A stretch of DNA of 64,000 bases, from assembly GCA_003427395.1 (NCBI GenBank), contig BFEA01000013.1:6683038-6747037 (forward strand), written 5' to 3'. The notes beneath the pieces are model-generated. The model saw nothing but the letters and a program-made list of their open reading frames with translations. It was not told the DNA's origin and did no database searches. Position 1 is the stretch's first letter, and every line of letters begins with the position of its first letter. Below, piece after piece: positions 22,691 through 64,000 of this stretch. This stretch comes from Chara braunii. Taxonomy: Eukaryota > Plantae > Charophyceae. The position numbers and the translations under genes are program-made.

Positions 22691-22974
22691 TATGCCCTAT
22701 GTAAGCTGGGTATAAGGGGATAAAATAACTGAAAGACTATGAACTATTGTTTGCCAACTTGACTTGGGAATGGTGAGAGCATTTACCTTTGTGGGTTGGC
22801 CTGCATGTCACTGAGTGATGTTACTACTTAGTCTGAGTTTCACTTGATAGGTAGTTGCTTTAGTTGCTCGCCACGTGCTAGAGCCATAGGAGTTAGTTCC
22901 TACATTTTCTTGAGCTAAGATTTTTTTTACTTAGATCAATTTCTGCATTTTCTGGGATCTTTTATTCATACGTG

Positions 22975-23430
22975 GTCTTGTATAAATCTTGGTAAGCCAC
23001 TTTCTCTACGGGAAGCGCTGCCGAAATTTCTACAAAACCAAGGAGTTAGTAAAAACTTTGTGTTCTTCAGGATTCGGTCTTGTTGGCTTTTTGACTTAGT
23101 AAGAATCTGGGAAGCCTCCTTTTCTAAAGAAAGTGCTGCCCAAATTTTTACTAATTCAGGGAGTTAGACAAAATTGGGCCTCGAAGGGTCAAGGTCATTT
23201 TAGAGTTTAAACTTAACTTTGTATAAATCTTGGAATAACACTTTCTCTACAGGAAGCGATGCCGATATTTCTACAAATCTAAGGAGTTGGTTAAAATTCT
23301 GTCTTAACAGAACTCAGACTTTATGTTTGAGTTCATATCTGAATTTGTTTAAATCTGGGAAGTCTTCTTCTCTAAAAGAAATGCTGCCCAAATTTTCACT
23401 AAATTAGGGAGTTGGACAAATTTTGACTTT
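22975..23430. repeat. ~121-bp tandem repeat (about 4 copies here; about 5 inverted copies at 40190-40750)
   Basis: AATCT(T/G)GG.AAG...TTCTCTA...GAA.(C/T)GCTGCC..AATTT...GGAGTT(A/G)G recurs about every 120 bp. Confidence 0.75.
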
Positions 23431-26400: not shown

Positions 26401-28110
26401 AAAAAGACTCAACAACTATTTGACACTTGTCACATAAAAAATAAAAGCGAAAAAAAAAAAAAAAAAAAAAAAAAGTTGAGGGGGAATGAGACAAAAAGGG
26501 AGAAAAGGGTGGAGGAGAATGCGCCGGCTTATTGGGATCTGCACAGTAGGAACTGGCAGGTCCTTACTGTGACCTCATCCCTCCTAGAATTGAGGAGGGA
26601 AGTCCGATTGCAAAGATATGACCCTTGGGGCAATATCTCCACAAAATATGAATTAAAAAGAGAAAAATAAGAAAGAATACAAAAAGGGGGTGACTGTTTT
26701 TTTTGTGGAGCATAGATATCTGAGATCAGATCTCATGGTGGAGAGGAACTAGCCGTTTTTTGTGGGCCATCTCAAAACGGCTAGCTCCGGAATGAGTTGG
26801 CAGCCCAAAATGGAAAGAAACAAAAGAGGAAAAAAAACGAAAACGTGCATTTGGCCCAAAAAGAGAGCCAGATGCAAAAAAAATTGAAAAAGTGAGCTTA
26901 GAGGCTCAAATCTGAAGCAAGGGCTACTTGGGGGTGACACAAAATATTTTTGGCCTTGGATCTCAACCAGATCTAAGGCTGAAAAGGCACCGAGGCATGG
27001 AGAACGACCTCGGCGTACCAAAAATGGGGTAGAAACTGAAAAAATCGAGAAAAAGGTCCTCAAGGCCTTTTTCTCTTAAGTAAGGCTTCCCCTTGGGCAT
27101 TGGGACCTAAGGGGGCAGCATTTTGAAGATGAAAAGGAGGCTAAAGGAGGCCAAGGGGCAATCTGAGTTTGTACCAACCACTCGGATTGCATGTACTTGG
27201 CCAAAATAAGGTCCGGGTACCTCCGGAAGGGCCTAGTGGTGAAACTTTGCTTTGGGGGTACCTCGGTTCACCTCAAGGCACATGGGGAGGCCCATGGGCT
27301 GGCCGGAGTGCTGGTTTCAGCCTACATAAGCTGAGGATTCAGTCCTCCACACTCACATTTGCATGAGGAGTGCCCATGCTGCCCAAGTGAACTCATAGGA
27401 ACACTTTCTCACTTGGAGAGAGGAGAGGGGAACCCCTGCCAGTTGAAGAGCTTAGAGGAGACTGTGAGCTAGGAGAATGAGCTCTACAGGTTAGTGGTAG
27501 TGAGGCTGGCCTAGGAAGGTAATCCGCCATAGCCCTCAAGCTGTGAGAAAGAGAGAAAGGCTAGAGAGTGTCTCATTACCCCTCCTAGAGAGCCTTCGTA
27601 GAGGGGAGGATTCCATAGCCATAATGGAAGAAGTTTGTCATAGTTTGGGTAAGGTTGAGAGAAGAAAAAAAAAATGGCTTGGGGAAGAAGAGAATCATAG
27701 CCAAGGAGATTCTTGTGGAAGGAAGGGAGAGACTTCATCAAGGTTGATGCTCCATCTCCAAGACATCAAAGAGGTGAATGGAAAGAAATAAATTNNNNNN
27801 NNNNNNNNNNNNNNNNNNNNNNNNNNNNNNNNNNNNNNNNNNNNNNNNNNTTTTTTTTCCCTTCTTCTTTTTCTTCTTTCTCTTCTTCTTCTTCTTCTTC
27901 TTCTTCTTCTTCTTCGTCTTCTTTTTTTTCCTTCTTCTTCTTCCTCCCTTATCTTCTTTCTCCCCTTCATTCTCCTTCATCTTTTTCTTCTCCTTCATCT
28001 CCTTCATCTTTCTCCCTTCCCCCCCCCGCTCTCTTCTTCTTTCTCCATGGGAAATTTCCTAAGCTTAGAGTGAATTGTAGGTCACTAGTAATGATCTCTC
28101 CATGGGCTCA

Positions 28111-29095
28111 TTCTTCACTCCCATGTGAATCGTCACTTCTTCCCTTGTGATTTCATGCATTTGAGTGAGTTCTACTCACTTTTCTCTCCCTTTCTCTCCA
28201 TTTTTTCACTTAGGAGCAAATCACAACTCTTGTATGTGCTTTCTCTAGTGTTTAGGTGAAGATACTCTTTTGCTTAGTCAATTTCTTCACTCTCATGTGA
28301 AGCGCTACTTCTCTCCTTGTGATTTCATGCATTTGAGTGAGTTCTACTCACTTTTCTCTCCCTTTCTCTCCACTTCTTCACTTAGGAGCAAATCGCAACT
28401 CTTATATGTGCTTTCTCTAGTGTTTTGATAAAAATACTCTTTTGTTTAGTCAATTTCTTCACTCCCATATGAAGCACTACTTCTTCCTTTGTGATTTCAT
28501 GCATTTGAGTGAATTCTATTTACTTTTCTCTCCCTTTCTCTCCACTTATTCACTTAGGAACAAATCAAAATTCTTGTATATGCTTTCTTTAGTGTTTAGA
28601 TGAAGATACTCTCTTGTTTAGTCTATTTCTTCACTCCCATGTGAATCGTCACTTCTCCCCTTGTGATTTCAAGCATTTGATGGAATTCTACTCACTTTTT
28701 CCCCCTTTCTCTCCACTTCTTCACTTAGTAGCAAATCGCAACTCTTGCATGTATTTTCTCTAGTGTTTTGGTGATGATTATCTCTTGTTTTGTCAATTTC
28801 TTCACTCCCATGTGAATCGTCACTTCTCCCCTTGTGATTTCATGCATTTGAGTGAGTTGTACTCACTTTTCTCTCTCTTTCTCTCCACTTTTTTACTTAG
28901 GAGCAAACCGTAACTCTTGTATGTGCTTTCTCTACTGTTTTGATGATGATTATCTCTTGTTTTGTCCATTTCTTCACTCCCATGTGAATCGCCACTTTTC
29001 CCCTTGTGATTTCATGCATTTGAGTGAGTTAAGACTCATTTTTTTCTCACTTTCTCTCCTCTTCGTCACTTAGGAACAAATCACAACTCTTGTTC
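28111..29095. repeat. 172-bp tandem satellite, ~5.7 copies
   Basis: TTCTTCACTC(C/T)CAT starts at 28111, 28283, 28455, 28627, 28798 and 28970. Confidence 0.95.
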
Positions 29096-32339: not shown

Positions 32340-33500
32340 CTTCTACCCTATAGTAACTGTCAGCACCATGCCCCCTTCTTCTTTGCGTTCCACTTATGGT
32401 TTCATTGGTGCCCCTCGCGTCCTTCAGTGTCTCCCCTGTCGTAACCACGTCCTCTATTATCGCGCGCACCATTCCCACGGCCCCTTCCAGCCTCCTGTGT
32501 TTGGCCTTCTCCATCAACCAAACTGCCTTGGGACATTTGTTGTGTCGGTGGCTGAAACGGTCTCATAGGTTGAGTTGGTTGAGTTTGGGTTGTTGGAGGC
32601 CTAGGCTGCATCATGCTCACCTGTGGATCTAAATAACTGGCATGTGCCCATGACCTATATGGATTATACATCGGTCATAAACTCATTTGATGGCATGACG
32701 TCCACTACCCATATCAGACCTGCTCAGTCGACAGAGGACTCTTTCTCGTTGCTTTATCTACCGACCCTTGTGGGGTAGCCGCTACTTGCTGCGAACATTG
32801 CCCCTTTCCGGTTCCTTGACCTCCCTCCGCTAGGTTCCTCGCTTTCCGCTCAGCCTTCGTCAACTTAGGAAGGTCACGTTCCTCCTCTACTTCAATCCCA
32901 TTTTTAACTTCATCTCTCCCTTGAGCACTAGTCCGCCTTCTCGGGGTTCCCCTGAGGGGAAGCGGCCCTTTGTCACCACCCTCTGCTCCTTCCTCGTCCT
33001 GTCCAGTCGACTCACTTGAGGCACCCTCTAAAAACTTCCTTTTGACTTTCTTAGTCTCTTCCAGTCGCGTCAACCTTTCTTCCAGTATTCCAACTTGCTT
33101 CTGTATACCACTCAACTCTCCTGGTGCTGACGCAACTCCAGTTCAATGCACATGACTCCTACGAGGTGCACTCTCTACTCCACCTTCTCGGGAACCTTAA
33201 CCTCAAAGAAGTCTCCAACTCACCCCAGGTCCGCGACTTTAACATCAGAGCATACACTTCCTCACTCAACTCTTCGCAGACGAACAACGACAACATGCTC
33301 CACATCGCTTTCTCGTCCCACATCTTTGCGAGGCTGAAGTTATGATAACCGCGTAGGAATGCAGACAAACCCCTTCCCCGAAACAACAAGGCACAAAGGT
33401 CATGGGGCATCGAGTAGTGTACCGACTCACACAGCAACACTTTACTAAGGCACGAGCTCTTCCAGTGCAGGATTTTGGCAAAACCACTTTCTTCAGCCAT
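32340..33500 (-). pseudogene. Degraded retrotransposon Gag-like sequence (capsid-like segment, coiled coil, Gln/Pro- and RG-rich tail)
   Basis: FRGRGLSAFLRGYHNFSLAKMWDEKAMWSMLSLFV...TWGELETSLRLRF fits the gypsy Gag pattern F.G....FL..Y......W......L..F...W..L...L...F. Downstream fragments contain ILEERLTRLEE and GRGRGNGARDNRGRG. Confidence 0.55.
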
Positions 33501-33797
33501 GATGTTGGTACCGGCCTGACACGCATGACAAGCAATCGATCATCAGACTGTGACGCAAGAAGGCTAAAAACAAATAAGGCTAGTAGAAATTGCTAATACT
33601 CAATTCACACTGACTATTTTCCCATTCACACCACAAGGTCTGAATTTTAGTCACCCTTGCTTTAACTTTAAGGGTACTATGAGCAGTATACTACCTATAT
33701 AGGCAGAATTTTCAAACCAGTCATAAGCCGGCTATAATTGTGGCTACAAAGGTTACTGACCCTCGCACTCGCACTTAGCAGAGCGTGAGGGTACTCT

Positions 33798-34472
33798 CTA
33801 TCCGTCTGCTACCGCCCGAATCTCGTCCCAATCTACAACCCTTTCATCTGGATCGTGGGAGCCAGCATAGGCATCGACAATATTGATCATATTCTTGTGC
33901 CCTTGATTATAGGGTATAAACCTTCGGTCCAGGTACAGGCCATATATCAACTCGCACGTGTACCGTGCATATCCCCATTCTCTCGTCCTCAAGGCGCCTT
34001 CTGCTGCAGCTTTTGCCCTCGCGTGTCCCCCAAAACACTTTTCTACCAGGAACTCGTGCATGATGACTCGTAAAGGGGCTGCAGGAAGTACAAACTCTTT
34101 GGCAGACTTGACCTCTATATGGATCTCCACTTGTTTCTCTCCTTCACGGACCCTGCCTCTCGCCCACTTTCCTGCAGCTCCCTCAGCTACCCTCAAAGGT
34201 CTCACGAGCAGGCTTTCATGCCCAAGCGTCAACTCAATCCCATGTAAGACCCAAAACGAGGGAGACACATACAAGGTCACCCTCACGAGCGCGCAGTCGT
34301 GACCATCATCAAGTCCAGAGTCGATCGAAATGAAGATACCCTTGTCTATCAGTATACCCCACCAGGAAGATATATATTCTCCTTCCTTGACTCGCCTTGA
34401 CAAGGATATCTCAAACCCATCTTCCTTCCTGACCGACAAGGTCACACTAGGATCTTCCCTAGCATAAGGCAT
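33798..34472 (-). CDS. 224-aa hypothetical protein, probable distant member of cassette family B, upstream of a gag-like ORF
   Basis: Clean, non-repetitive ORF. DKGIFISI...VRVTLYVSPSFW and LIYGLYLDRRFIP resemble family-B motifs at comparable positions (by eye). Confidence 0.6.
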   Translation of the reverse strand: MPYAREDPSVTLSVRKEDGFEISLSRRVKEGEYISSWWGILIDKGIFISIDSGLDDGHDCALVRVTLYVSPSFWVLHGIELTLGHESLLVRPLRVAEGAAGKWARGRVREGEKQVEIHIEVKSAKEFVLPAAPLRVIMHEFLVEKCFGGHARAKAAAEGALRTREWGYARYTCELIYGLYLDRRFIPYNQGHKNMINIVDAYAGSHDPDERVVDWDEIRAVADG

Positions 34473-35724
34473 CCTGAGTTGCCTTCGCTCTGGTCTAGGT
34501 TCTGCTCATCATAGAAAAAAACGTCCAGCATACACCTTTCGCTACTATGCAAACAATCGCGTCATAGAATCTCTCTATCTCTAAGGCCTTAGCCTCCAAT
34601 TATCTTTCACTAAAATACATCATTTCCAATGTTTATGACCACCCAGCTTAGAGAAAATAATAATGGTAATAAAAATAATAGCACATTCACATATATCAAA
34701 ATTCATAATAATATTTATGAAAAAATGATACATCACCTTAATAACTGACATCAACAATTCTTATAGCAACCAAACTCATTATGTACAAGCTAGTCAATTA
34801 TCCAAAGCACATACAAATATTTCATAGTAATCTTATATCAACAAATATTTCATATGATAGACACGTTATGATTAGAGATAAGGCCGCTAACAATTAGCAT
34901 TCTCATACATAATAGCAATGAGAGTACCATATTTTACTCGCCTAGTTTTGACATAAGTACACTATGGCGAGAGGCAGTGTAATCCTTTTTAGAGAGGATA
35001 ACATCTCAACTCCCCGAACCCTGCTCAAGGATCCAGCCTCACTGCTTCTCCCTCTGATTACAGCACTCGCTCCTTGCAGACCCTTCCCGACAAAGCAAAC
35101 AACCTCACCATACACGCTTCGGGATGCGTTATCTCGTCCTGTACTGGTGAACGTACTTGACGCAAAAATAGTTGGGGATTCACCCCCTACCTCTCTGCAA
35201 CATGTAATAGCTGGTTCCCTCATAGACCATGTTATGACAAGGCTCAAATACTTTTCTTCCTATTCAGTAGTAGTGTAGTTATCTTATCCCAAGAGATACA
35301 ACAACAACACCTCACGATGGACCAGGAACATAGTTTCAGCGTGGGTCTCACTACTACTTACAAGACAAAGTTATAACTTCTTAAAAGTCATCTTCCAGGG
35401 AACAATAACATAGGATTGCACACTTCCTTATGGTAGATCTTACATATGACCATTCTGTGAGAAAAAACTTATCTCAAGGAAATGGTTACTCCATTCACCT
35501 CTAAATCCATATCAGACATGGATTCTGCGCAATGCCTCTACCCCTCTTTGAAGAACAATCCAAACACACAAACTTTAATAAACAACCATAAGTTCACACT
35601 TGGACTTGAGACGCTCATATAAATTATTGAAAATTGATAAGTTAAAAAAAAATGCATACTTCAGATACATAGCCCATGTAAATATTTTTGACAAGGATAA
35701 CTATTAGAAGAATATAACAATTAA

Positions 35725-38339: not shown

Positions 38340-41300
38340 TCATACCAGGATGTCGTTCCACCAGGGACAACGACAGGCAACCGTTCTCCCCGGCAACGGC
38401 GCCACCTATCGAGCGCATCGGTCTGGCACCACACAAGGCAGCGCGGGACCCTCCCGGCCGCGTCACGCATGAGTTCGTTTTCATCCTCGTCGCAAATGCA
38501 TATGGAGTTTCCGCAAGCCGCTCCGGCCGAGTGCGTCAGCCATACCTCTCGCGACCCCCTACAATAGGATAGGGCCTACGCGAAGCACGACTTACCTCCA
38601 CCTTACGGGAGTTGTCACCTCCCTTCGGTGGGCGTATCCCCATCGAGCTACCAGTCCAAAATACGAAAGCTAATCAGGTACAATCGCAGAGGTGGACAAG
38701 CCGAGGGCGTTTCTCATTCGCTGTAGCATAGGGGGTACACGCATTACTACGCCTCTATCGGACCCGCACGCGAACCGACATCTTGGGGGGTTGAGGTCCC
38801 AAGCGCGACTCGTCGTCGGTCGACTAAGACGCATCCCACATGCCACACGCACACCACTATAAAGAACATAAAAATAAAAACACACACACATGCACGTACA
38901 TATACATATACAGAACGACATTGAACAAACAACGCGACAACACTCCTAGCCCCTTAGTAGTCATCCCACAACTCTCCGATGCGGAAATCGGATAGGCGTC
39001 GTGCGCGAGACTTAGTATAAAACCGCGAACTAAGTGATGACCTCATATCGACTTGTCATGCAAGCGTACAAAAGTAGTCATAATGATGGTGTACTATGTA
39101 GTACCCATACTCATGCGGTCCTCCTTAATCTCGAGGTTCGCATTCGACACTCGTGTCGGCTGACACGCGCCTTGAGGGATTGATCTCTCCATGTTGGACA
39201 ACCGCCAAGTGCGGTTGAGAACCACATCCTCTTCTGCACCCTGTGGAGAGTGGGTGATCCACAGGTTTATACCTGTACTGACAATCATTTCTTATCGCCC
39301 TGGAGACCAACTCCTTCATCTAGGGTCTAGAGAGAAATCAATGGGTTTGACATTGATGGCTGCCACGGACTACAACGTCCAACCATATAAAAAGCAAAGG
39401 CTAAAAAGGGAAGTCCCCTTTTTCTCGAAAACATAATTTGTTTAACCCTTACGCGTGGTCACAGTAGGCCGCACGAAACACTCAAGACATATATATCCAC
39501 ATATATAGAGAGGGTTATTAATATAGGACGATCACTTCTCATAGTCACATTGGGACTCCTCTCAGCCATATATATATGTATGTGAGCGCAGACAGTCAAA
39601 TTCAAAGTCCGAATCACCAAACATACATTGAATCACATCAAAGATTCAACCAAACAGTCCATGCATTACACGGGGTCAACTTCAACCATTCTTTGTACTC
39701 ACACCCCTTGCTTTAATCATGTAAGTCTCACTCTTATGCAACTCCTCAAAATAAAATACTTAGTACTTTTCTTAAATGGCCTGTCAAATAAAGTCCAGAG
39801 GACAACACAACAAAACAGTTCAAATCACAAGGCTAAAGTCTTTAGGTTGAGTGACAGAAGTGGATTGGAGTTGAATCGTAAACCGACGAATCGGCAACCG
39901 ACTTGTTATCAGTGATAACAGAAAGTGATCCTCGTAGGATCAAGCTGAATCTAATCCAAATCCTGAATCAATCGATCAAGAAGACCTGTAACACAAGACA
40001 TGTCAATCTCGAAGTCAAATCTATAAGTCCAGGGATAATAATTTCAATATCACAATCTCACTCAAGTTTCTCTTGCAAAATAAACCTAGGCCTACTTCTA
40101 AGCCAGTATCCAACGTAAGACAGACATATAGCAACATCTCCCCTATTCATGTTGGATTGTCAGAATTATCACCTGTCAAAATATAATCTGACTCCTTTAA
40201 ACTAGGAAAATTTTGGTCGCGCTTCCCGTAGGAAAAGTGTTTTCTCAGAATTTATATCAGCCTGAATATGAAAACACAAATAATATGAAACCTTTCAAAG
40301 TCAGTTTTTGTCTAACTCCCTGAATTAACAAATTTTGGGGCAGCACTCCCCTTAAAAAATGAGACTTCCCAGATTTTTACCAAGCCAGGTATAAAAATCA
40401 GACAAGTTGAACTTTAAAAAAGTCAAATTTTGACAAACTACTTGGATTTGCATAAATTTGAAAGCATTTTCCGTAAAGAAAGTAGCTTACCAAAATTTAT
40501 ATAAAGCTAAGTTCCAAATTTTAAATGACTTTGACTTCTCAAGGTCCAATTTTATCTAACTCCCTGAAGCAACAAAAATTTGGGCAGCACTTTTTTTATA
40601 AAAGGAGGCTTCCCATATTTTACTAAGTCAAAAAGTCAAACAAACTGAACCTTGAAAAGATAAAATCTGACCAACTCCTTGGTTTTGTAGAAATTTCGGT
40701 AGCGCGTCCCGTAGAGAAAGTAGCTTACCAAGATTTATACAAGACTAAGTATAACAAAAAAATCCCAGAAAATGCAAAAATCGACCTATTTAAAATAAGC
40801 TTAGCTCAGAAAATGCAAGAATTAAAACTAACTCCTATGACTCTAGCACGTGATGAGCAACTAAAACAACTACCTATCAACCAAAAACTCAAACTAAGTA
40901 ATAACCTCACTCAGTCACACGCACGCCAAACCACAAAGGTAAGTACTCTCACTATCCTCAAAGTCATCTTAACAAACAATAGTTCATATTCGTTCAATGA
41001 TTTATCCCTTTATACCCAACTTACATAGGGCATAAAGCTAGACCACTCAATCTTATGGGAACATGTCTAACTCAGTCATGGAGTATACACAAACACAGGG
41101 CAGAACAACTTTTCTGTTCTTTGAGCATATGACTAGGCCACCCTAGTCGCCCTGAATTGTTTAAATATCCCAACTTTATATAATTATCTGCACTCAGTCT
41201 TTTGAGGTAGCATATAACTGAACCGATCATTTTTAGCTCAATATTCAGTCTGCCTCTTCATACCACAAGTTTATTCTTAATTAGTACTCTCTTTAGTTGG

Positions 41301-54106: not shown

Positions 54107-54763
54107 TCAGATGCTCGGCGCAACGCAGGTAAGTGTTTGCTTTCCTTCAACTCCTTCTTCCTGACCTTTCTTCTCCTCTTCCTCCTTCTCCTTCCTTCTT
54201 CCTCCTCCTCCTTCCTTCTTCCTCCTTCTCCCCTTTCTTCTAGACGTCCACCTTTTTCCCAGATTCAGGGAACTTCTCTCCTTGAAACGTGCTGATGTGA
54301 GTGGACACGAAAGCAACTTCCTCTTCGACCCGCATTCATCGACCCGCATTCGTTTTTTTTTCCTTTTCTCCGAAGCCCGCGGGATAAGGGTGTCAACTGC
54401 CGAGAGACGGCGATGGACACCTTGGCTGTCAACTGGATTGACGCCTTCCTTTTCCCCCTCCGTCGCTGTCTTCTTCTTCTTCTTCCTCTTCTTCTTCTTC
54501 TGTATTCCCTTCTTCTCACGCTCCACCACTTTCCGCGCGAGTCTCCCGCTCTCCGGGTTTTCTCGCAATATCTCCTCTCGTCCCGATTGCTTTTCTTTTA
54601 AGTCATCTAGTACCTTGATCACGACAGCCTCTAACAACTTGATCCTCCGCAAGGCTCCTGGCCTCGCCCTTCTTTCTTCTTCCCAGCAAAGGGCTAATAT
54701 CCGATATAACTCTGCCCTAACCCTTTCTTAACCCACTAGTTCACCGATGTCGGGCTCACTCAT
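54107..54763 (-). pseudogene. Cassette ORF8, basic/helical protein with one early in-frame TAA (54728); the 3' part runs into low-complexity sequence
   Basis: The ATG at 54763 is in frame with track ORF 54107-54652: MSEPDIGELVG*ERVRAELYRILALCWEEE...LRRIKLLEAVVIKVLDDLKE. Confidence 0.5.
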
Positions 54764-55502
54764 GCCTCAAATTCCTCCGTCGGCAAGCTATAGCTATCCG
54801 TATGAGATCCGACGGGTCTAATCCTTCTAACCCTGCTTCACAGATTTTTCCCAGGTATCTCCAGGTGATGGTCGAGACCCTTACGTGTTGGCCCCAACCC
54901 TCAAAGGCNTAGCCCAGACCCTCTAATGATGACCAATTATCCTCGTATGGACTCTGAAGGCACCAGGTTAATAGGGAATGCAGGTCCGTCCTTGTGAACN
55001 GAAATTGGCTCAGNATCGCGATCCTAGGTCCTACCACCTTCCGAACTGCTTCCGAGGGATAAATCCGCTCAAGAATAAATNGAGGGACTCCGCCGGGGTC
55101 ACTGTCGAAAAACCTAGGTATCTCTTCCCAACCTGCGTAGGTCACTCGGCAGACCCTAGGGTATTCTTCTCGAGGACTCCCTTCTTCCATAAGCTTTTCT
55201 AAACGCTCTTGGATCGCCGGTGCGTCCACAAGCGGGTCCTCCCTTAATTTTAAATTGNGGACCACCTCCAGAAACCCTCCCTTAGAAAGGAACACTGTGG
55301 CCTCTCTGACTGCCAACCCTTCTCCGCTGCTCACCGTCGCCCGAACAAATACTCTCCCTCGGTGTATCTNTGCCACCTCCTTCCGAATGGCCCTTGTCGG
55401 GTCCCTCTGACTTTCCTTGGGCAAGGAGACTTGGACAATTTCCCCCTCCTCACTCACAGGCTCTATGGAGGCCCAAAGAGTCTCGGGAACCCCCCTTATC
55501 AT
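54756..55502 (-). CDS. Cassette ORF7, family B (248 aa)
   Basis: Open frame with RGRVFVRA, VREATVFLSKG and EEYPRV; the stop overlaps the next start (ATGAGTGA). Confidence 0.7.
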   Translation of the reverse strand: MIRGVPETLWASIEPVSEEGEIVQVSLPKESQRDPTRAIRKEVAXIHRGRVFVRATVSSGEGLAVREATVFLSKGGFLEVVXNLKLREDPLVDAPAIQERLEKLMEEGSPREEYPRVCRVTYAGWEEIPRFFDSDPGGVPXFILERIYPSEAVRKVVGPRIAXLSQFXFTRTDLHSLLTWCLQSPYEDNWSSLEGLGXAFEGWGQHVRVSTITWRYLGKICEAGLEGLDPSDLIRIAIACRRRNLRHE

Positions 55503-56293
55503 CGGGCTTCGTACCCCCGCCGGTTAGCCACTTGCTCTTCCCTGAAGAGGCGGGCGTACGGGACGTCCACGACGTGAGCTCAGATCCCCTCAAACTCTCT
55601 TAATCTCTCAAGTATAGAGGACAGCTCCCCCCTCGGGGGAAACCCCGCGTCCACACACCGCGTATAGAGCCAGAATAACCCTGTCGTCCATACCCCAGAA
55701 TCCCATGCGACTTTAAGTACCGCTACCACCCTTTCCCCCGTGCGACTTTAAGTACCGCTACCACCGCGTATAGAGCCANAATAACCTTGTCGTCCATACC
55801 CCAGAATCCCGTCCTCCCCAGGAATGAGCGTACNAGGAATTGGGGCAGCTCCGCGTGGAGGACTCCGGACGCACGAGGGACCTCTCCAGGTTCGGTGAAG
55901 GACACCTGTGTCCACGACTCGAAGGTCCCCTCTTCGTAATCACCCAGTACCAGGCTGTTTGCTAACAACCTTGTGGACTCACGATACTCCGTANGGGCCT
56001 CTTGGCCTGTTACTAATCCCCTCCACACTTCAGTCCACCTCGTTGAGGAAGATCGTAGCCCGAATCTCAAGGAAACGACCGAGGTCTGGCGGGCCTCCTC
56101 TTTGCACTCCTTCCTTCCAGGTGAGCCTGCGAGTTCGAACCCACACGTAGGCCCCTTCTCGGATGACTCCGCCTTTCTTAACGCTCATTCAATAAGGTGT
56201 CACGCGAGGGTCTCCCGGAATCAAGACTTTACCCGCGTCACTAGCCTCTACTGCCTCTACCACCCCGTTTTCACTGAGCACAAATCTCACCAT
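55499..56293 (-). pseudogene. Cassette ORF6, family B, disrupted by stops, a frameshift and a local duplication (55660-55810)
   Basis: MVRFVLSENGVVEAV...REGAYVWVR...EIRATIFLNE / VWRGLV...GEVPRAS...LYTRCVDAGFPPRGEL...GYEAR*. It starts 23 nt inside ORF5 and ends in an ATGA overlap with ORF7. Confidence 0.65.
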
Positions 56294-56957
56294 CTACCAA
56301 CGCCGTTTTGAAAACCCACCGGCGGTATCTTTCCGGCGAGAGAGTAAAGGGTTCCTCTAGGGACCCCAATCTCCTAAAAATACCCCAAAGCTTCCCGCGT
56401 GGTGGGATACCCTGATCGATACAATGCGTGTACAGCGTCCACATGGCCCCAAAGGGTAATCCCAAACTCCTCCCTCTTTCCAGGAGTCTCACCACTCTTC
56501 CCTCACTCTCTCTTGAGAACACAAAGTTTGGGACCCACACGGTCACAGGGTAACTTGCCCTTGGGAGTTCACCTGCCCTGGCGAACCTCCCGGCTTTCAA
56601 CGCCTCAAACTCGACCTCCTTTCGGACCCTATCTATCCACCTCCTCCTGACTTCTCGAGCCTCCCTGATTAACAAGTCCAGCCCACCCCCTTGGCCCAAG
56701 GCCAGGGTTACGATAATCTTCGACCAAGCCTCCGACTTGACGAAGATNACCGAGGTGACTTTAAGCCGCANCTCCGCCGTTCTCTCCTCAGCCCCTTCCN
56801 ATTCTATCCACACGAAATTACCTCCAGCCGTAATCTCCCCTCCTTCCAACCTTCTCCAATCGGGGATTCTCCCGTTGCTCGGAACCAGGCTACACACCCC
56901 TCGTTCTTCTAGAGGGGACTCGATGAACCTACCNACGCCCTGGTCAAATAGAATCAT
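56271..56957 (-). CDS. Cassette ORF5, family B (228 aa)
   Basis: Open frame with GGNFVWIE, KVTSxIFVKSEAW, GELPRAS and LYTHCIDQGIPPRGKL motifs shared with neighbouring ORFs. Confidence 0.7.
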   Translation of the reverse strand: MILFDQGXGRFIESPLEERGVCSLVPSNGRIPDWRRLEGGEITAGGNFVWIEXEGAEERTAEXRLKVTSXIFVKSEAWSKIIVTLALGQGGGLDLLIREAREVRRRWIDRVRKEVEFEALKAGRFARAGELPRASYPVTVWVPNFVFSRESEGRVVRLLERGRSLGLPFGAMWTLYTHCIDQGIPPRGKLWGIFRRLGSLEEPFTLSPERYRRWVFKTALVDGEICAQ

Positions 56958-57701
56958 TCATTCCACCCTTTGACGCACCCCAAACACCCTTTGGTATCGG
57001 TAGTCCCGTCCGCCCTCACGGTCTCTCTCCGACTCAAGAGAGATCCTCTCCCTGATCTGATCTGCCCTAACCCNGTACAGGANAGGGTTGTCCATGCAAT
57101 AGGAATAGAACTAGTGGAGCGAGCGAAAGGACAGGCCCCTCCTTCTCTCCCGCCTAGAAGACCTCACTACTTTTTCGTACGCGCCCCCTTCTCCANACAC
57201 CCTCCTGAAGACGTAAGAAGGGAAGATAGCCTGGACGCAACCCGCGGCTCGAGGATATTCCTCGTCCCGGGCGGAAGTCACCCGCAAGCAGAACGATAGA
57301 CTATGCTGAAGGGGCACCTCCTCCAAGATCCGCCTCAGGATAGGTTCCGCGCGTAACTCCCAGTGGTCCNCCCGATACCACCCTAAGGGCCAGTGGGTGA
57401 CGTACTCGACCCACNCCTCCCGACTTAGATAGACCGTGCCCTCAGCACGAACCGCCGCTCGCCGGGCCTTCCCCCNGTTCCTAGGTCTATTCCTAGTTTA
57501 CCGATATCCTTCCCAAATGCCTACGGCGAATCGTGCCCAAAGAAAGACTCCCTTCTCAAGTTCCACCCCTCTCTCACGCCCCGCTAGGTATCTCTCCGTC
57601 CNATGATCCAAGGGGACACTAAAGCATTCTCGTTCTTTGAGAAGGTCTACCTTCTCGATCTTCACTCTGCCGTCTTCTCCGGCTTCTACAATCCTAACCA
57701 T
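56958..57701 (-). pseudogene. Cassette ORF4, family B (~247 aa) with two in-frame stops (57498, 57111)
   Basis: One continuous frame MVRIVEAG...EKGVFLWARF...RAEGTVYLSRE...EEYPRAAG...QRVE*; the terminal TGA abuts the ATG of ORF5. Confidence 0.65.
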
Positions 57702-58065
57702 GCCCCTTCCGACTTTGCACCACCTTCTTAATGACTCCTATCNATACCTTCCACCCGTCGCACCCGTCGAGATAGGCCTCCGGTATGATCGGGGCGGGCC
57801 TCTCACCTCGTCGGAAAGTACGGTAACCTAGAGTATAGAAATACCGGGTCTCGTAGGCCCCCAGAAGTTCCTTTTCTAGCCGCGCGAGGCCAACAACCTC
57901 CTCCCAACTACTAAGAAACCCTTCTCCCAACGTCCCCTCTTCAACGTAGAGGGCGATGTCCCAATCTCCGGTCCATAGGAAGAACTTGTAGCACCACACG
58001 TCTACTCCCCCACAGTCACCCACGCTGATGCCTCCTGGCTCAAATTCTAAAACCCGTACGCTCAT
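57694..58065 (-). CDS. Cassette ORF3, family A (123 aa)
   Basis: MSVRVLEFEPGGI...WTGDWDIALYVEEG...YLDGCDGW...KGHG*; the stop overlaps the next start (ATGGTTAG). Confidence 0.7.
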   Translation of the reverse strand: MSVRVLEFEPGGISVGDCGGVDVWCYKFFLWTGDWDIALYVEEGTLGEGFLSSWEEVVGLARLEKELLGAYETRYFYTLGYRTFRRGERPAPIIPEAYLDGCDGWKVXIGVIKKVVQSRKGHG

Positions 58066-58425
58066 ATGTTCTTTACTATCTCCTCTATAATCGATACTAA
58101 CACTCTCCACCCGTCTGACCCATCCAGATATGCTTCCGGTACAACCGGGGCGGGTTGCTCCCCTCGTCGGAAGACTCGGCACCCCAGCGTATAGAAATAT
58201 TTGATCCCATACCCTCCAACAAAACCCCCTCTCTAGCTGCGCATGGGCAACCGCTTCCTCCCAACTGTTTAGGAAGGCTTCTCCTTGGTCAGTCCCTTCT
58301 TTTACGTAAAGTGCTATATCGAAGTCCCCAGTCCACAGGTAAAAATTGTAGCACCACACATTTACACCCCCACGGCTTCCCCCGCTAATGCCTGCTGGTT
58401 CAAACTCCAGAACCTCTAAGCTCAT
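58062..58425 (-). pseudogene. Cassette ORF2, family A (~120 aa) with a 1-nt frameshift near 58225
   Basis: MSLEVLEFEPAGI...QLERG; removing one base from the G/T run restores FVGGYGIKYFYTLGCRVFRRGEQPAPVVPEAYLDGSDGWRVLVSIIEEIVKNI*, ending in an ATGA overlap with ORF3. Confidence 0.7.
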
Positions 58426-58775
58426 AGGCGCCCCACTATTTCTTCTATAATCTTGACTAATACTCTCCACCCATCGGACCCGTCGAGATAGGTGTCCGGA
58501 ATCACCGGCGCAGGCCGACCGCCCCTAGGATAAGTTCGGTACCCTAAGGAGTAGAAGTAACTGAATCTGTACCCTCGCAGCTCACCTCTAGCCCCACGGG
58601 AGTCGTTGACCGCCGCCCCCCATCCGCGGAGGAAATTCTCTCCCTGGTCTCGCCCCTCTTCTACATAGATAGTCACATCAAAGTCTCCCGTCCACAGGCG
58701 GAAGGTATTGGACCACACGTCGACCCACCCATAGCTTCTTACGCTAATCCATTCTGGGACTGCTGCTAGGCTCAT
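58422..58775 (-). CDS. Cassette ORF1, family A (117 aa, unknown function)
   Basis: Shares VDVW..F.LWTGD(F/W)D..YVEEG and YFY(S/T)LG.R...G.(R/Q)PAP..P..YLDG.DGW with ORF2 and ORF3. Its TGA overlaps the next ATG (ATGA, 58422-58425). Confidence 0.7.
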   Translation of the reverse strand: MSLAAVPEWISVRSYGWVDVWSNTFRLWTGDFDVTIYVEEGRDQGENFLRGWGAAVNDSRGARGELRGYRFSYFYSLGYRTYPRGGRPAPVIPDTYLDGSDGWRVLVKIIEEIVGRL

Positions 58776-58845
58776 TCACCCTAATCAACGAGATATAATT
58801 TTAGTCCTCCTTCACTATTTGGCCACTCGAGAGACCACCCCTACC

Positions 58846-59372
58846 CTGCAAGAAGAAGGTGTCTGTGAGCCCAGCAGGATCAAATGGACCAGAGAAGGAA
58901 CGCCGTCTCACTCGGCTACCTTCCTGTCCTCTTCCGCTGAGAGGTCCTTCCACTTCCAGGTATAAGGACTAGCTGCGAACACAGGTTATCCCCGAAGAAG
59001 GGTGACAACCCCTCCTCCGGAGTCGGACTGAAGTCACACACCCGTGCCCTACGTCCCCCACCAAACCGACCCCTAGTCCTAGTTAGCCTATCCGGTACCA
59101 CGCCTCTACTCGGCCCACCTCAAGCGTGGAATTATCCGGGTCCCCGGACTCGATCCACCTATCGATCAGATATCACTAGCCTGTTTACTCCCTCCCGTTC
59201 TCCTTCTCGCATCGCGAACCCTTCTCACTTCGATCCCTTCCTTCTTTTCGCCACCGGCTGACTCTTTTCTCTCTTAGAATCAAAGAATTAGATCGGGGTA
59301 TCCGAAAAAAAAAGGGTGGGTAAGCAGAGATTTAGGAAGAGTCTCTCAGGTCAGGCAGATATATATACGCAC
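58846..59372 (-). other. Putative spliceosomal intron (527 bp) preceding the ORF cassette
   Basis: Donor CAG|GTGCGT at 59372; branch-point-like CTCAC near 58865-58869; pyrimidine tract and acceptor CCTTCTTCTTGCAG| at 58846. Confidence 0.5.
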
Positions 59373-59392
59373 CTGGTGGTTCTTGAGCCCTT

Positions 59393-59968
59393 TCAATATT
59401 CGTTTTCGTAGTCCCAATAATCCCCTAGGTCCGAGTCCGAGAAATCGGCGAGGCACCGGTCTACCCAAGACCCGTCCTCCGACCCCTCGTCCAAGGTACC
59501 CCACGTATCCCTAACCTCTTCTTCCCGAGGTAGTTCCNTATCCCCCTCGTTCANAACGNCACTTGAGGTTTCCTCGCCCNNTAGTCCCGGAGCCCGAAGC
59601 ACCACTCTCCTTACCCCCAAGTCCCGAACGGTCTCCGCTTGAGAACTCCGCTCCCNAGGGGGANGCATGTCTCTCGCGGGCCCCGCACACAACCCTCGCG
59701 GGTCGAGAACCGAGAACCCAAAACCTTCCCGCGGAACCCTTTCCGGTGCGGAAGTTGTNCCTCGTGCGGGTGCCCTCCACAGTCCGTGCGGGTCGAGGAT
59801 GTTTGGCGACCCCCTTGGATCCCAAATTGATAACGCTCTCAGATCCTCCCGAGTCCCCCTTTCCTCTCTCACCCTTGAGTCCACTCTCTCTCCCCCGTGT
59901 GCGGACCCTATCACACTATTTTCCCTCATGGCTCTTCTTACCGCCCTTTGGTTGCTTTTCACCCTCAT
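59393..59968 (-). CDS. Hypothetical 191-aa protein with an acidic C-terminus, upstream of the ORF cassette
   Basis: Open frame ending ...DFSDSDLGDYWDYENEY*, on the same purine-rich strand as the cassette. No recognisable domain. Confidence 0.35.
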   Translation of the reverse strand: MRVKSNQRAVRRAMRENSVIGSAHGGERVDSRVREERGTREDLRALSIWDPRGSPNILDPHGLWRAPARXTTSAPERVPREGFGFSVLDPRGLCAGPARDMXPPXERSSQAETVRDLGVRRVVLRAPGLXGEETSSXVXNEGDXELPREEEVRDTWGTLDEGSEDGSWVDRCLADFSDSDLGDYWDYENEY

Positions 59969-61116
59969 TCAAACCCCCACAAGCAAACTGTTTAGCCCNC
60001 TTAGTCCGTTGATTTTTGGAATAAACACTTNAAAAACATCACATTCCCNAGCAAAGACTGACCTGAATCATCTTGGAGCAGCAGGGCCGAAATCGCAAGC
60101 GGGGCCGGAGCGGACCTGCAAAAATCGAGAATTCCCGACACCCACAAGCCCTTTGCACCCAACAAGCCCGACACCCCTATCCCCATACCGAAACAAGGCC
60201 CCAATAGAACCCGCACCCCGATATCAATCAGAAACCCGAATGCCGCCAAGGAAAATAAGTCGTTGTGAACTGCTACGTAGGCCCGTGAAAAAAGACCCGA
60301 AGAAGTGCCCATACCGAAAAACCCGATGCCGGAAAGCCGAACTCTTGACGCCNAAACTCCGAAGAAAGTCCTGNCACTACCTGTCACGTCGGTTCTCCTT
60401 CACCCGTAGTCCTCGAGCTGGTNGAGGCCGTCGGAGAAANCCTCCCACNGNAACGGCGCNACTTTGTCGGCTTGTCCTTCCCCCTGTTCCCCCGGTCTCG
60501 GATACCTGGGCCTCCAGGGGTCAGGGGCTTGTCTCTTTTCGACTCACTTTCCCGACCACCGCCTGATCCGCCTAGACTGCTTTTGGCAGCCCCTGAGCTC
60601 CCCTTCGTCATGCCCCTTCTATGCACTTGCCCCGTCCCGGAACCGCGGCCCCGGTCGGACGTGAAAACCGCTTTCGAAACTCGAGTGGCTCTATCGGTTT
60701 GATCCCAGGCTTCGAGGGGCCGGAGTAACTTTCAGATCACAGGCCCCCCCCTTCGCTAGGCAGGCTAGTTCCTGCCCTGCAAGTCAGGTCACGCACAGAC
60801 TGTTCNCGGAGTCTTCAGATTGAGATATCCAGACAACGAACAACCTGTTTCCGGGACNTCCGTCCAGGANTGACTTTCGGATTGCGAGAAGGACGNCCTC
60901 CTGGACTTCGGGTTTGGGCTGAAAGATAGATCGCAAACAGGCCAACTCCGGGGCTTTAGATTAGGACTGCCATTCCAGTCTGCGAGCAGATTGATTNNNN
61001 NNNNNNNNNNNNNNNNNNNNNNNNNNNNNNNNNNNNNNNNNNNNNNNNNNNNNNNNNNNNNNNNNNNNNNNNNNNNNNNNNNNNNNNNNNNNNNNNNNNN
61101 NNNNNNNNNNNNNNNN

Positions 61117-61195
<79 letters not shown>

Positions 61196-63269
61196 TACGG
61201 CTGCGCTCTCTACCTCACGGCCGCTCTCCCTCTTCCTTTTTCGTGTCCAGCCTCCCCGACTTCTCGTGCGCTTCGTCGGAGGCAGGCATCGGGCGCATCT
61301 GAACGCGTGCTTTGATTCTCCGCTCCTGAGCGCTACCGTGCTCGTTTCTCCTCGCGTGAAGTGCGCGTTCTCCTCGTGCTCTCCCCCCTTCTTGTTAGCT
61401 CCAGTCGTTGTCGTGCTCCTCCATGCGGTCTAACATGACGTGCTCCCCTCCTCGATCACCCGGACTCACGTAGCCCGGTCGAGCTCAAAAATGCGCTCCG
61501 TCTAGCCTTCGTACGCTCCGTCCAGCCTTCGTATGCTCCTTCCTCCTCTCCCTCTCCAAGAAAGGGACCCTTCCTCTTTTTTTACTCTCCGTTTTCCTCC
61601 CAACCTTCCCTGATCAATCCTCCCTCNCTCCTTCTTCTCCAATCACTTTGCACCCTTCTCGCTCTCAATTCCCTTCCGACGTCCCGNGGCTTGTCTTNAC
61701 AANTTTTTCATCTCCCGCTCATTTGCGAATTTGTTCGTGCGTTCCCTCTTTTCGTAGCCACGCCCTCACTCGNNTTCNCGCTCTCTTTCTNGTTTCAGTA
61801 GACGAAACCCNCGCCTTTTCTCCCTCTCAGCATCCCTTCTTTCTTTCGTCCGGTTCCCCCACATTTTTGTNGGCCGCGTGGGGGCGCGTACCTGGCAAGG
61901 CCCCTTGCCCTGATAGATTCTCGTCGCGGCACGCACTCCAGCCCCTTCGTCCCGAACGATTTGCGATCTTAGCGCACTCCTCCCGTTCGCATCCTCTTTG
62001 TTCTTTGAGCAACATTGAATCTTGATCGTATTCGGCAAACACACTCCCTCCCTTCACCTCCATCCAGCTCATATGCAGTTAGCCGGTTCGTCTCCCTCAC
62101 CCTCGTCAGTACCCATCTGCCCCCNCAGATCTCGAGGTGGCCTGGCCCAACCTTCAAACAGTTATCAAGAAAGATTCTTGGCAGCTATACGTTAACNGCC
62201 CCGGTTCTTTCCCGCTTTCCCTTCAGTTCCGTGGGTCAACTCNTTTCCGGCCACCTCGGCCTGATCGTTGNGCGGGGCAGTGCTCTCGTGTCGTGGTTTT
62301 CCCGGTATCGCCAGAGGTCCGGTCTTCAAGGCTCTATCCAGGTTCACGTGCATCTCTCTTGGGCGCGAGGACAAGATCTCGCCTTCAACCCCAAANATCG
62401 TGCAGGCCAGTCGAACGATTTTCATCGGCAANCCATACGANAGGCTGGTAACCCAGCGTCCTTAAGCCCTCGCATGTTCCACNTCCCCGCATCGTTGATC
62501 CATCTCCCGCCCGACATNTGTGCCCCTGACAACCCAACTTCTGCTCGTAGTCACACCCCGTTCGTGGCTCTTGCTACCCCACTGCAGCTCATAGCCAATG
62601 TCCGGTGCCTTTCCTCGAACTCTCCATCCTAGGATCTCGATGGCCCCAGTCAAAGACCTGCCGCATCCGCCCTTCCCCTGACTTAAAGCCTTGAGAATGC
62701 CAATTTTTGTAGTCCGTGCGACCCCACCTGTGGCCGCTGTCCTTGTCGCCTCCTCCGGTCGTCGGAGGGTTAGTATCAGTCAAACAAACTCAAACCCCCC
62801 TTGAAACCCTTCATGCATATGCAACCACATATCGAAACCATGCAAAAAATCAGACAGGGAAGGTAATTTCTCTTTCCTTTTCTTTAACGAAGATCCCCTT
62901 GCTGGCAGGCAGCCGCCCAACAACCAGCCCACACCCCAATTCTCGCCGTCCCCGACGAGCCTTTCCCCACAAAACCCCTTTTTCTTTGCCCCATGACCAA
63001 TGGTCATCCCATGGTTCATATTAACCCTCACCCCTCTTTCGTAAGATTCGGTTCTTCCCTTTGGTCTTCCTTTCTCGTGGACTTAACTTTTTGTTTTCCA
63101 TACTCTCACTTTTGGAATCACGACATATGTCTTTGCTTAACTATGGTACAACGTTCGCTTCGGGATTACGACACATGGCCTCTCTCGACACATGTTTCTA
63201 TAACTATGGTACATTTTTTCTAACAACCTCTCCTCACGATACAAGATTCCCTAACTAGGGTACATCACA

Positions 63270-63280
63270 CCCCCTTCTCC
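63270..63280 (-). promoter_or_regulatory. Polypurine tract followed by the TG start of a 3' LTR at 63269 (LTR runs leftwards; far end not located)
   Basis: Minus strand reads GGAGAAGGGGG|TGTGATGTACCC about 12-20 nt after the pol stop codon. Confidence 0.7.
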
Positions 63281-63291
63281 ACTAGGTGATT

Positions 63292-64000
63292 CTATATTCG
63301 TCTCCGCCTCCTCATCCTTTTCTCTCTCCTCTCTCTTTTTCGTTTTCTTTCTTCCCTCTCGCGTCTGTCTCTCAAGGCTTTTCTCGAAGCGCTCCTTCTT
63401 TCTCTCAACCTCCGTTTTCCTAATCGGTCAGTTTCTCCGTCGTCTTCCCTTGGCCGTTTCTTCCTTCTAGGGGTCTTTGGCAAGGGAGGTCTCCGAACCT
63501 TATACCCCCTCTTAGGCGGTCGCGAGGAGGCTCCTTGTTTTGAAGTCTCTCCCCTCTCGTGGGTGAGGGTTATTTCCGTGCCGACCACTTCCTTCCGCTT
63601 CCTCTTTGGTTCCTCTCTAAAGGTGCCCCGCCATCGGAAGAGTTTGAGGCGAACCCCCACGATAGGGTCCCGTAACTTGGTTCCGTCTAATTCGGCAAGG
63701 AGATATACCCCTCCATCCAATCTCTTTAGGACCCGGTACAGACCCATCCATCAGTTGGCTAGCTTCCTGCTCCAAGTCTTTTCCAGTAACGAGTCATACA
63801 TCAGGACTAGGTCTCTAGACCCTATCGGCTCTTTTCGGACTCTCAAATTCTTGTCCCACCTTTCCTTCCCCTTCGTCCTCTCCTTCTCAATGTTCTTTCC
63901 TGCCTCGGCAAGCCCCGCGTCCAGGTTTTCGGTTATTTGTTGTATCCTTGCCTCCAGTAGCTCAGTCTTCGTCATGTTGGTATTCCATGAGACACTCGTC
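63292..64000 (-). pseudogene. C-terminal end of a Ty3/gypsy LTR-retrotransposon pol (integrase GPY/F-like module) with an Arg/Lys-rich tail; one premature stop; continues beyond the window
   Basis: ORFs 63751-63975 and 63292-63747 are in frame and read ...RDLVLMYDSLLEKTWSRKLAN*WMGLYRVLKRLDGGVYLLAELDG..., matching the gypsy integrase motif KLxxRWxGPY/FxV. The TGA sits at the expected Arg (likely CGA>TGA). Confidence 0.85.

Follow-up and report, generated by a model that had tools for sequence, protein, structure and literature searches.

In a 64-kb stretch of the Chara braunii contig BFEA01000013.1 (hereafter the window) we identified a minus-strand array of ORFs that probably represents the 5' accessory region of a multi-copy gypsy element, now decayed, which would be expressed from one RNA by ribosomes scanning through ORFs cleared of AUGs. 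The ORFs are supported as real, selected, retroelement-borne genes built for polycistronic translation. The copy studied is decayed and has no gag-pol of its own.

Layout of the array and its stop/start junctions

A first-pass annotation had described eight consecutive ORFs, and each of the seven junctions it listed was found in its place on the minus strand of the window (Table 1). These comprise ATGA overlaps at 58425-22, 58065-62 and 55502-499, an abutting TGA-ATG in the same frame at 56960-55, 8-nt overlaps at 57701-694 (ATGGTTAG) and 54763-56 (ATGAGTGA), and a 23-nt overlap between ORF5 and ORF6 (56293-71). The additional minus-strand TGA-ATG reported before ORF1 is present at 58778-73, but its TGA closes no upstream ORF. 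We do not count another TGA-ATG, at 56191-86, as a ninth junction but regard it as a lesion, because homology continues across the site. Reading frames change at most junctions, that between ORF4 and ORF5 being in frame.

Tight coupling was observed at six of the seven junctions, compared with 17-19% in the background (31/182 stops on the plus and 31/166 on the minus strand), defined as an ATG within -5..+3 of stops closing stop-free stretches of at least 60 codons in window positions 1-54000. The binomial P was 1e-4 to 2e-3, depending on stop usage, and without the two duplicated family-A junctions 4/5 were still coupled (P 0.003).

Comparisons supported seven of the eight ORFs. The eighth is uncertain, since no homolog of ORF8 was found in Pfam or in shuffle comparisons and held-out profiles against the other cassette ORFs, and its low-complexity, purine-rich part below about 54520 may be flanking DNA. 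Its start context, GGCATG, is that of ORF4. Lesions in the copy studied affect ORF2, ORF4, ORF6 and ORF8, and the 49-nt duplication in ORF6 corresponds to 55762-55810 / 55656-55704.

Table 1. Features of the array and related loci (window coordinates)
Feature	Position	Strand	Description
ORF1	58422..58775	-	family A, 117 aa, open
ORF2	58062..58425	-	family A, frameshift near 58240; ATGA overlap at each end
ORF3	57694..58065	-	family A, 123 aa, open
ORF4	56958..57701	-	family B, 247 codons, two internal stops; sole strong-context start
ORF5	56271..56957	-	family B, 228 aa, open; in frame after ORF4 stop
ORF6	55499..56293	-	family B; broken: two stops, frameshift, 49-nt duplication
ORF7	54756..55502	-	248 aa, open; distant member of family B
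ORF8	54107..54763	-	uncertain; stop at codon 12
ORF U	59393..59968	-	191 aa, acidic C-terminus; opens with TGA-ATG
Putative TATA-like box	59358..59367	-	sole TATA[AT]A match between 63300 and 58780
Putative leader	58776..59340	-	565 nt, acceptor-like YAG at 58846
Second locus	33162..34502	-	family-B ORF 34502-33798 directly 5' of gag remnant 33539-33162
Integrase-like C-terminus, purine tract, TG start of possible LTR	63267..63999	-	neighbours the cassette; link to it putative

Two protein families and their probable link to a Ty3/gypsy element

The array arose from two tandemly duplicated protein families. ORF1-3 constitute one paralog family (family A) and are under purifying selection, including the downstream ORF2 and ORF3: dN/dS, proposed earlier as a check for values below 1, was 0.07-0.18 in all five pairwise comparisons among these paralogs, with third codon positions least conserved. 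Between-copy differences in ORF1-4 were not significantly biased (10/23 synonymous, P 0.08, for the 40 best-supported of 292 rows). Shuffles and held-out profiles placed ORF4-7 in the second family (family B), with z 10.7 for ORF4 versus ORF5 and a profile score of 26 bits for ORF4 against a shuffle maximum of 3.5. For ORF7 the corresponding values were z 8.0 versus ORF4, 0.4 versus ORF5, and 12.0 bits against a shuffle maximum of 7.4.

Real homologs of the cassette were limited to four Chara braunii gene models (CBR_g19376, CBR_g39819, g72645 and g40479), three of which share the cassette start Met and run on into gag/protease or RT. ORF1 is 77% identical to residues 1-71 of CBR_g19376, where a Ty3-like RT follows, and ORF5 is 54-60% identical to the other three, of which CBR_g39819 continues into gag and an aspartyl protease and g72645 into the same pre-gag/gag region. 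The best PDB match of the linked RT was Ty3 RT (E 2.5e-19 to 3.4e-18). Residues 176-400 of CBR_g39819, with one Met in 225, were assigned neither to family B nor to ORF8.

A HMMER search with ORF5 against 1.84 billion proteins returned five matches, three from Chara and two marginal Ig-like repeat proteins (E 5e-4 and 7e-4) that were dropped as chance. No homologs of ORF1 and ORF5 were found among near-length proteins, and no relatives among viral contigs (ORF3 and ORF5), metagenomes (ORF1), prokaryote genomes (ORF5) or phages (ORF3). The ESM Atlas gave no match for ORF1 or an ORF5 homolog, and Pfam, queried with 16 + 7 pieces (two plus-strand pieces not counting), gave a best E of 0.013, below the cut-off. 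Structure models were unusable (pLDDT 44.7 and 33.7), and Foldseek returned no match at E 0.001 or better. In the searches run, in which queries of the large protein collections did not include ORF4, 6, 7, 8 and U, the two protein families are thus without match outside Chara. By analogy only, the cassette proteins, which resemble no known family, might be antagonists of host defence or of silencing required in graded amounts, a role we regard as unlikely.

The cassette was identified as a dispersed multi-copy repeat by DNA depth, identity spread and the occurrence of the four gene models on contigs that all differ in length. DNA-run depth, which is summed contig depth and not copy number, was 147-1039 over ORF1-4 versus 20-24 for two window-identical contigs. 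This multi-copy presence in DNA of the same organism is among the observations that largely refute an origin from a chimeric scaffold with DNA of bacteria or phages, or from a polyprotein broken by copy-specific stops. The operon-like junctions would fit such an origin, as would the in-frame ORF4/ORF5 junction with its potential for read-through, but the ORF5 search recovered Chara proteins plus two marginal matches only, the ORFs tried had no viral, phage, metagenome or prokaryote relatives, the reading frame changes at most junctions, and the start Met is shared by paralogs and other copies; we consider it extremely improbable.

At the second locus in the window, the family-B ORF at 34.5 kb scored z 8.6-8.9 against the ORF5 homologs, and the gag remnant z 7.4 against the gag of CBR_g39819 (0/500 shuffles). 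Since cassette ORFs precede gag or RT in three gene models as well as at this locus, we conclude that the array is probably the accessory region at the 5' end of a Ty3/gypsy LTR retrotransposon of Chara, upstream of gag-pol. The cassette had been described as lying beside a gypsy retrotransposon; its retroelement-borne nature stands, but most likely it belongs 5' of its own family's gag-pol and not merely beside an integrase remnant. Gag, protease and Ty3-type RT on the cassette strand were present in other copies only, via automatic gene models that may span more than one element: at its end g19376 has a second gag-like region, and in g40479 an ORF5 homolog is fused to DUF659. A search around the copy studied revealed neither gag-pol nor an LTR pair or PBS; the window contained no second copy of 63290-58780 and no tRNA, and no CA-TGG site was found near the leader.

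The neighbouring tail at 63999-63565, which we take to be integrase-like by its GPY/F-like motif, had no match in Pfam or PDB sequences. Because the cassette follows this tail and its purine tract on the same strand, with no gag after the cassette, the array could instead be part of a very long LTR, or occupy the interval between pol and the 3' LTR, of the element whose integrase tail is at 63-64 kb, with its own promoter and an independent gag. Isolated ambiguous bases continuous from 54909 to 62518 (60/63 in the window) and the TATA-like box directly upstream of the cassette are consistent with this location. We nevertheless regard it as improbable, given that three gene models and the 34.5-kb locus place cassette ORFs upstream of gag or RT, and an LTR of at least 9 kb would be needed to reconcile both, compared with 1.9-6.5 kb for Ogre LTRs in the accessible part of PMC6431247.

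AUG avoidance and the mode of translation

The evidence for scanning comes from the depletion of AUGs over the 3.2 kb of ORF4-8, in which two out-of-frame ATGs were present versus 19.7 expected from codon shuffling (P 2e-4 or less). Before G, NAT was used in 1/23 cases versus 26/61 elsewhere (P 4e-4), with the opposite trend in control two-fold boxes (18/28 vs 18/46), and before TG, A-ending codons were used in 1/40 versus 32/142 (P 0.0014). ATG was the rarest of the 64 trinucleotides on the sense strand (15 vs 34.4), and CAT was not depleted. Other copies likewise contained one Met in 532 cassette residues compared with 33 in 1300 gag/pol residues (P 1.8e-4). Start contexts of the eight ORFs were weak in five cases, moderate in two and strong in one, with R-3 or G+4 missing at 7/8 starts and the +4 A imposed by the ATGA geometry at three.

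AUG clearance, weak starts and the lack of UGGGA near the junctions point to scanning as a better fit than calicivirus/BM2-type serial reinitiation alone, and thus to leaky scanning of the RTBV type more than to pure TURBS-type coupling, with reinitiation as a likely helper. The accessory module had originally been proposed to be translated by serial reinitiation; polycistronic retroelement genes are retained from that proposal, and the mechanism shifts towards scanning. With most of the array stripped of stray AUGs, a single RNA would likely yield many proteins, the ribosomes moving along it from one ORF to the next. In the mechanism we favour, 40S subunits would load at the cap and traverse the nearly AUG-free leader, and at each weak AUG some would initiate and the remainder slide on. 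Where subunits complete an ORF, some may reinitiate at the AUG that overlaps its stop, those that miss it would scan the AUG-free ORF to the next start, and in intact elements the last would arrive at gag.

Against scanning, ORF1-3 are not significantly AUG-poor in the copy studied, although scanning from cap to end needs the 5' ORFs to be cleanest. Their out-of-frame ATGs numbered 10 versus 13.1 expected (P 0.19; 14 vs 14.9 in a second count), and three of their AUGs stand in strong context. Two of these (58732 and 58474) are missing from most other copies, and most ORF1-3 AUGs open mini-ORFs of 1-15 codons. As the ORF4 start is strong, flow to ORF5-8 should be limited. Nor are ATGs depleted in the family-B ORF at 34.5 kb (16 vs 16.7 expected).

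Tolerated internal AUGs beside coupled ORF1-3 junctions would be accommodated if each downstream ORF of the same element were reached only by coupled termination-reinitiation, whether of calicivirus, BM2 or SART1 type or with TAV-like help from a protein that the array itself encodes. Scanning alone does not require tight coupling at 6/7 junctions, and stop-start coupling is known in the non-LTR element SART1 (accessible part of PMC5972666). This explanation, which we consider unlikely, leaves synonymous-level AUG avoidance over 3.2 kb unaccounted for; moreover, UGGGA (motif 1) was found in the 110 nt upstream of 0/7 junctions (the TGGGA count in the cassette was 12), the ORF5/ORF6 overlap is 23 nt long, and Caulimoviridae, which use scanning or TAV according to the available text of PMC5902531, have fused stops and starts as well.

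AUG-poverty limited to ORF4-8 and the sole strong start of ORF4 would also be explained by alternative splicing into sub-genomic mRNAs, with entry for example before ORF4 and ORF1-3 and ORF4-8 as separate blocks, or with monocistronic ORFs. CaMV is an example of such splicing (PMC5902531, in part), and acceptor-like YAG occurs at 58846, 57828 and 55542. Before ORF3, ORF6 and ORF8, however, even the best acceptor-like sites contain no more than 8-9/14 pyrimidines, the site at 57828 is part of a conserved F-Y-S/T-L-G coding stretch with no AG there in ORF2, and AUG avoidance would be needless were each ORF on its own mRNA. Two raw RNA runs yielded 2/8.9 million and 90/16.7 million reads on ORF1-4 and the leader, and at this very low depth no read was 99% alike, no splice joint was seen and no expression of the copy studied was detected. 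Taken together, we regard splicing as quite improbable.

Returning to scanning with restart, it is possible, short of probable, that the intact element is an LTR retrotransposon with a true operon, in which 7-8 accessory genes and gag-pol share one genomic RNA read by scanning and restart over >4 kb, and in which one of the two new families may promote reinitiation or block silencing. If true, 40S scanning over >4 kb would be several times the distance documented for RTBV.

Known systems and the region upstream of the array

On RTBV/badnavirus pregenomic RNA the polyprotein is reached by leaky scanning through ORFs I and II (PMC5902531, accessible sections). Like the array, these viruses have accessory ORFs that precede (in the array, probably) a retroelement polyprotein, with stops and starts that are fused or overlap slightly, mostly weak start contexts and tolerance of short internal uORFs; their ORFs lack internal AUGs, as do the leader and ORF4-8 of the array for the most part. 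In contrast, RTBV has two accessory ORFs over about 900 nt and the array 7-8 over 4.3 kb, 3.2 kb of it AUG-poor; the array's proteins are unrelated, the RT linked to it is Ty3-like, and a search for a strongly folded shunt leader gave none. Regarding membership of the Caulimoviridae, cassette ORF pieces had no Pfam match and the linked RT scored best against Ty3; the likeness is in the way of working only.

Additional ORFs are carried by Ogre and other plant LTR retrotransposons (PMC6431247 and PMC7264820, in the parts available). Ogre-type elements resemble the array as gypsy elements with conserved extra ORFs of obscure function and origin, sometimes upstream of gag-pol, but Ogre has 1-2, the usual place of the additional ORFs described is between pol and the 3' LTR, and those parts of the two papers contained no coupled multi-ORF paralog array. 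Nuclear polycistronic transcripts of green algae, with up to six genes each (PMC7896298, PMC11291117), share with the array the green lineage, leaky scanning with weak first starts and, at some loci, overlapping stop/start; they differ in being chlorophyte host genes without a retrotransposon and mostly with inter-ORF spacers. Termination-reinitiation is described for caliciviruses (TURBS) and SART1, as is TAV transactivation for CaMV with its seven tightly spaced ORFs (PMC5972666, in part). Overlapping or abutting stop/start in eukaryotic RNA is common to these and the array, where stop and start lie within a few bases at six junctions, but TURBS motif 1 is absent from all seven, SART1 contains just one junction, no homolog of TAV was detected, and reinitiation routes need no AUG-free ORFs.

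LTR retrotransposons with extra ORFs are thus already known, as is leaky scanning in both plant pararetroviruses and green algae, and in the literature searched no LTR element had 7-8 accessory genes in a coupled array (the Chara braunii genome paper, outside the search, may describe one). Two protein families without match outside Chara in the searches run are added here. If confirmed, the array would offer a natural test of 40S scanning reach and restart frequency. It would then also provide a model for expressing several genes together in plants and algae and, in the algal sisters of land plants, represent a parallel to the genome design of caulimovirids or its precursor.

We infer a single transcript whose promoter would lie at the TATA-like box or upstream of it. 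The leader contains one ATG versus 5.7 expected, and its folding was not better than that of shuffles (z -0.91). A 20-nt leader motif matched one metagenome contig, but the match lay in a bacterial LysR region and was dropped as due to chance. Among runs recorded as RNA, none was listed as containing the stretch. Six contig sets presumed to be RNA contained 6-8% of the stretch's words, and one aligned set matched the leader only. ORF U, without Pfam match, is likely part of the same element family as the cassette; DNA depth in its region was 3086 at 59409-59477, with loose ends of relatives at 59392. Leader positions 58788-59132 are common to a much larger repeat family, with a DNA depth of 1935-8116 and loose ends at 58818.

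Gene content and state of the cassette

The ORF junctions proposed in the first-pass annotation were all confirmed, at the coordinates given there, by minus-strand translation. Six of the seven had an ATG at -5 to +3 relative to the stop; among stops of a similar kind in window 1-54000 this held for 31/182 and 31/166, giving a binomial P of 1e-4 to 2e-3. When only independent junctions were counted, four of five were coupled (P 0.003). The cassette ORFs are real genes that fall into two families. ORF1-3 exhibited mutual identities of 52-71% with aligned start codons, and the purifying selection for which a dN/dS below 1 had been suggested as a check was borne out in five of five pairwise comparisons (0.07-0.18; synonymous sites were nearly saturated). 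That ORF2 and ORF3 are under selection suggests translation of ORFs downstream of the first. The second family comprises ORF4, ORF5 and ORF6; ORF7 belongs to it more distantly (z 8.0 with ORF4, 0.4 with ORF5), and held-out profile scores gave the same grouping. ORF8 is the weak member of the array; its codon 12 is a stop, its 3' half is of low complexity and no match was found in the comparisons made. The cassette ORFs searched matched no Pfam family and no Atlas cluster and gave no usable fold; viral, phage, metagenome, prokaryote and protein collections gave no support for a bacterial or phage origin of the ORFs tried.

The copy in the window is decayed: ORF1, ORF3, ORF5 and ORF7 have intact reading frames, while stops, frameshifts or a 49-nt duplication affect ORF2, ORF4, ORF6 and ORF8. 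The cassette DNA is repetitive and present in many copies. When one DNA run was compared with window 57477-59537, 1231 contigs matched at 85% or more, with summed contig depths of 147-1039 over the ORFs and 1935-8116 over 58788-59132; two contigs identical to the window had depths of 20-24. Among the 40 best-supported of 292 listed rows, the 23 differences within ORFs (10 synonymous and 13 nonsynonymous, P 0.08) included no new stops. From the loose contig ends at 58818 it is clear that the leader is common to a larger family, whose sequence continues differently beyond it. One loose-end class carried a strong-context ATG right past this break, which suggests subfamilies with different first ORFs.

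Features of the cassette and its surroundings in the window
Feature	Position	Strand	Remarks
Cassette, ORF1-8	58775-54107	-	
Putative leader	59340-58776	-	565 nt
ORF U	59968-59393	-	191 aa, acidic end, good coverage in relatives; opens with TGA-ATG, as in ORF1 and ORF5
Integrase-like tail	63999-63565	-	presumed, by motif
Long frames	59667-60566; ~61850-62760	+	partly broken; antisense to cassette
Short segments	54092-54128; 54264-54297; ~52987	+	inside/below ORF8 tail
Ambiguous-base cluster	54909-62518		60/63 of the window's isolated ambiguous bases; suggests that the assembly merged near-identical copies or alleles
Second, older gypsy remnant	34502-33162	-	
Family-B ORF of this remnant	34502-33798	-	
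Dispersed inverted repeat pair	~21460-24710; 38510-42160		large; segments 77-91% complementary
Tandem array	28009-28995		period 172 nt

Probable association with gypsy gag-pol

The cassette likely belongs to a gypsy element, in a position 5' of gag-pol. Its real homologs were four Chara braunii gene models only, automatic models that can bridge separate elements; two further matches were dropped as chance. In CBR_g19376 the first 71 residues are 77% identical to the ORF1 N-terminus, with the same start Met, and lead into an RT for which Ty3 is the best solved-structure match. CBR_g39819 and g72645 begin at the ORF5 Met (56% and 54% identity), followed by a region common to both; in g39819 this region extends across gag as far as an aspartyl protease. 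CBR_g40479 joins part of ORF5 to DUF659. DNA-level support for this linkage comes from the family-B ORF at 34.5 kb, which lies directly 5' of a gag remnant. The window's cassette copy has no gag-pol downstream of ORF8, and neither paired LTRs nor a PBS could be located.

Residues 176-400 of CBR_g39819 (P0003), which separate its ORF5 part from gag, contain one Met in 225 and may represent a further cassette ORF of unassigned family. The integrase-like tail, without a Pfam or PDB match, may be a neighbour of the cassette; the plus-strand long frames located between the two could be antisense additional ORFs.

AUG avoidance and mode of translation

In ORF4-8, ATG was the rarest of the 64 trinucleotides against dinucleotide expectation (15, starts counted, vs 34.4 expected) and its complement occurred at normal frequency; with codon usage fixed, two out-of-frame ATGs were present vs 19.7 expected. 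T-ending Tyr/His/Asn/Asp codons before G amounted to 1/23 in ORF4-8 vs 26/61 elsewhere, with the opposite trend in control codon boxes, and A-ending codons before TG to 1/40 vs 32/142. The leader contained one ATG vs 5.7 expected. Other copies had 1 Met in 532 cassette residues vs 33 in 1300 of the gag/pol parts, the latter counted in two of the same gene models. Start contexts were weak in five ORFs, moderate in two and strong in ORF4.

ORF1-3 were not significantly AUG-poor (10 vs 13.1 expected). Most of these AUGs start mini-ORFs of 1-15 codons, two are absent from most other copies and none is common to paralogs, but decay should have affected ORF4-8 to the same degree. The strong ORF4 start and the 34.5-kb ORF, which is not AUG-poor either, likewise count against scanning. 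These points would fit a spliced RNA that enters ahead of ORF4, or a combination of reinitiation for ORF1-4 and scanning from there on. We favour ribosomes that would scan through the ORFs, because of the AUG avoidance, the start contexts, a design like that of rice tungro bacilliform virus (RTBV) and badnaviruses, and no evident TURBS, the calicivirus-type termination-reinitiation signal. As no UGGGA occurred within 110 nt upstream of any junction, a TURBS as outlined in PMC5972666 is not evident; of the serial reinitiation originally proposed, restart at coupled junctions is kept as a likely helper.

RTBV and badnaviruses place accessory ORFs, cleared of AUG, ahead of the polyprotein with short overlaps or fused stop/start codons and tolerate short uORFs (PMC5902531), a design that matches the one inferred from the cassette sequence. 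Additional ORFs are described as common and mostly single in plant LTR elements (PMC7264820), with one or two in Ogre (PMC6431247), and chlorophyte nuclear polycistrons as holding up to six genes read by leaky scanning, some with stop/start overlap (PMC7896298, PMC11291117). In the literature searched, no LTR element was described as having an array of this kind, and these Chara elements were not mentioned; the Chara genome paper may bear on this point. Our verdict is an operon-like accessory array of a gypsy element that would work like a tungro/badnavirus RNA but is not a caulimovirid.

RNA evidence for the cassette was negligible. Two raw runs, covered to about 6% and 12%, gave 2 and 90 matching reads, none of them 99% alike and none with a splice joint; leader reads occurred in both mate orientations, and the few reads covering the ORF3/4 junction came from relatives, with DNA carry-over possible. 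The short plus-strand segments near the ORF8 tail, bounded by eye by acceptor-like YAG and GTAAG/GTGAGT donors, are possibly exons of another transcript.
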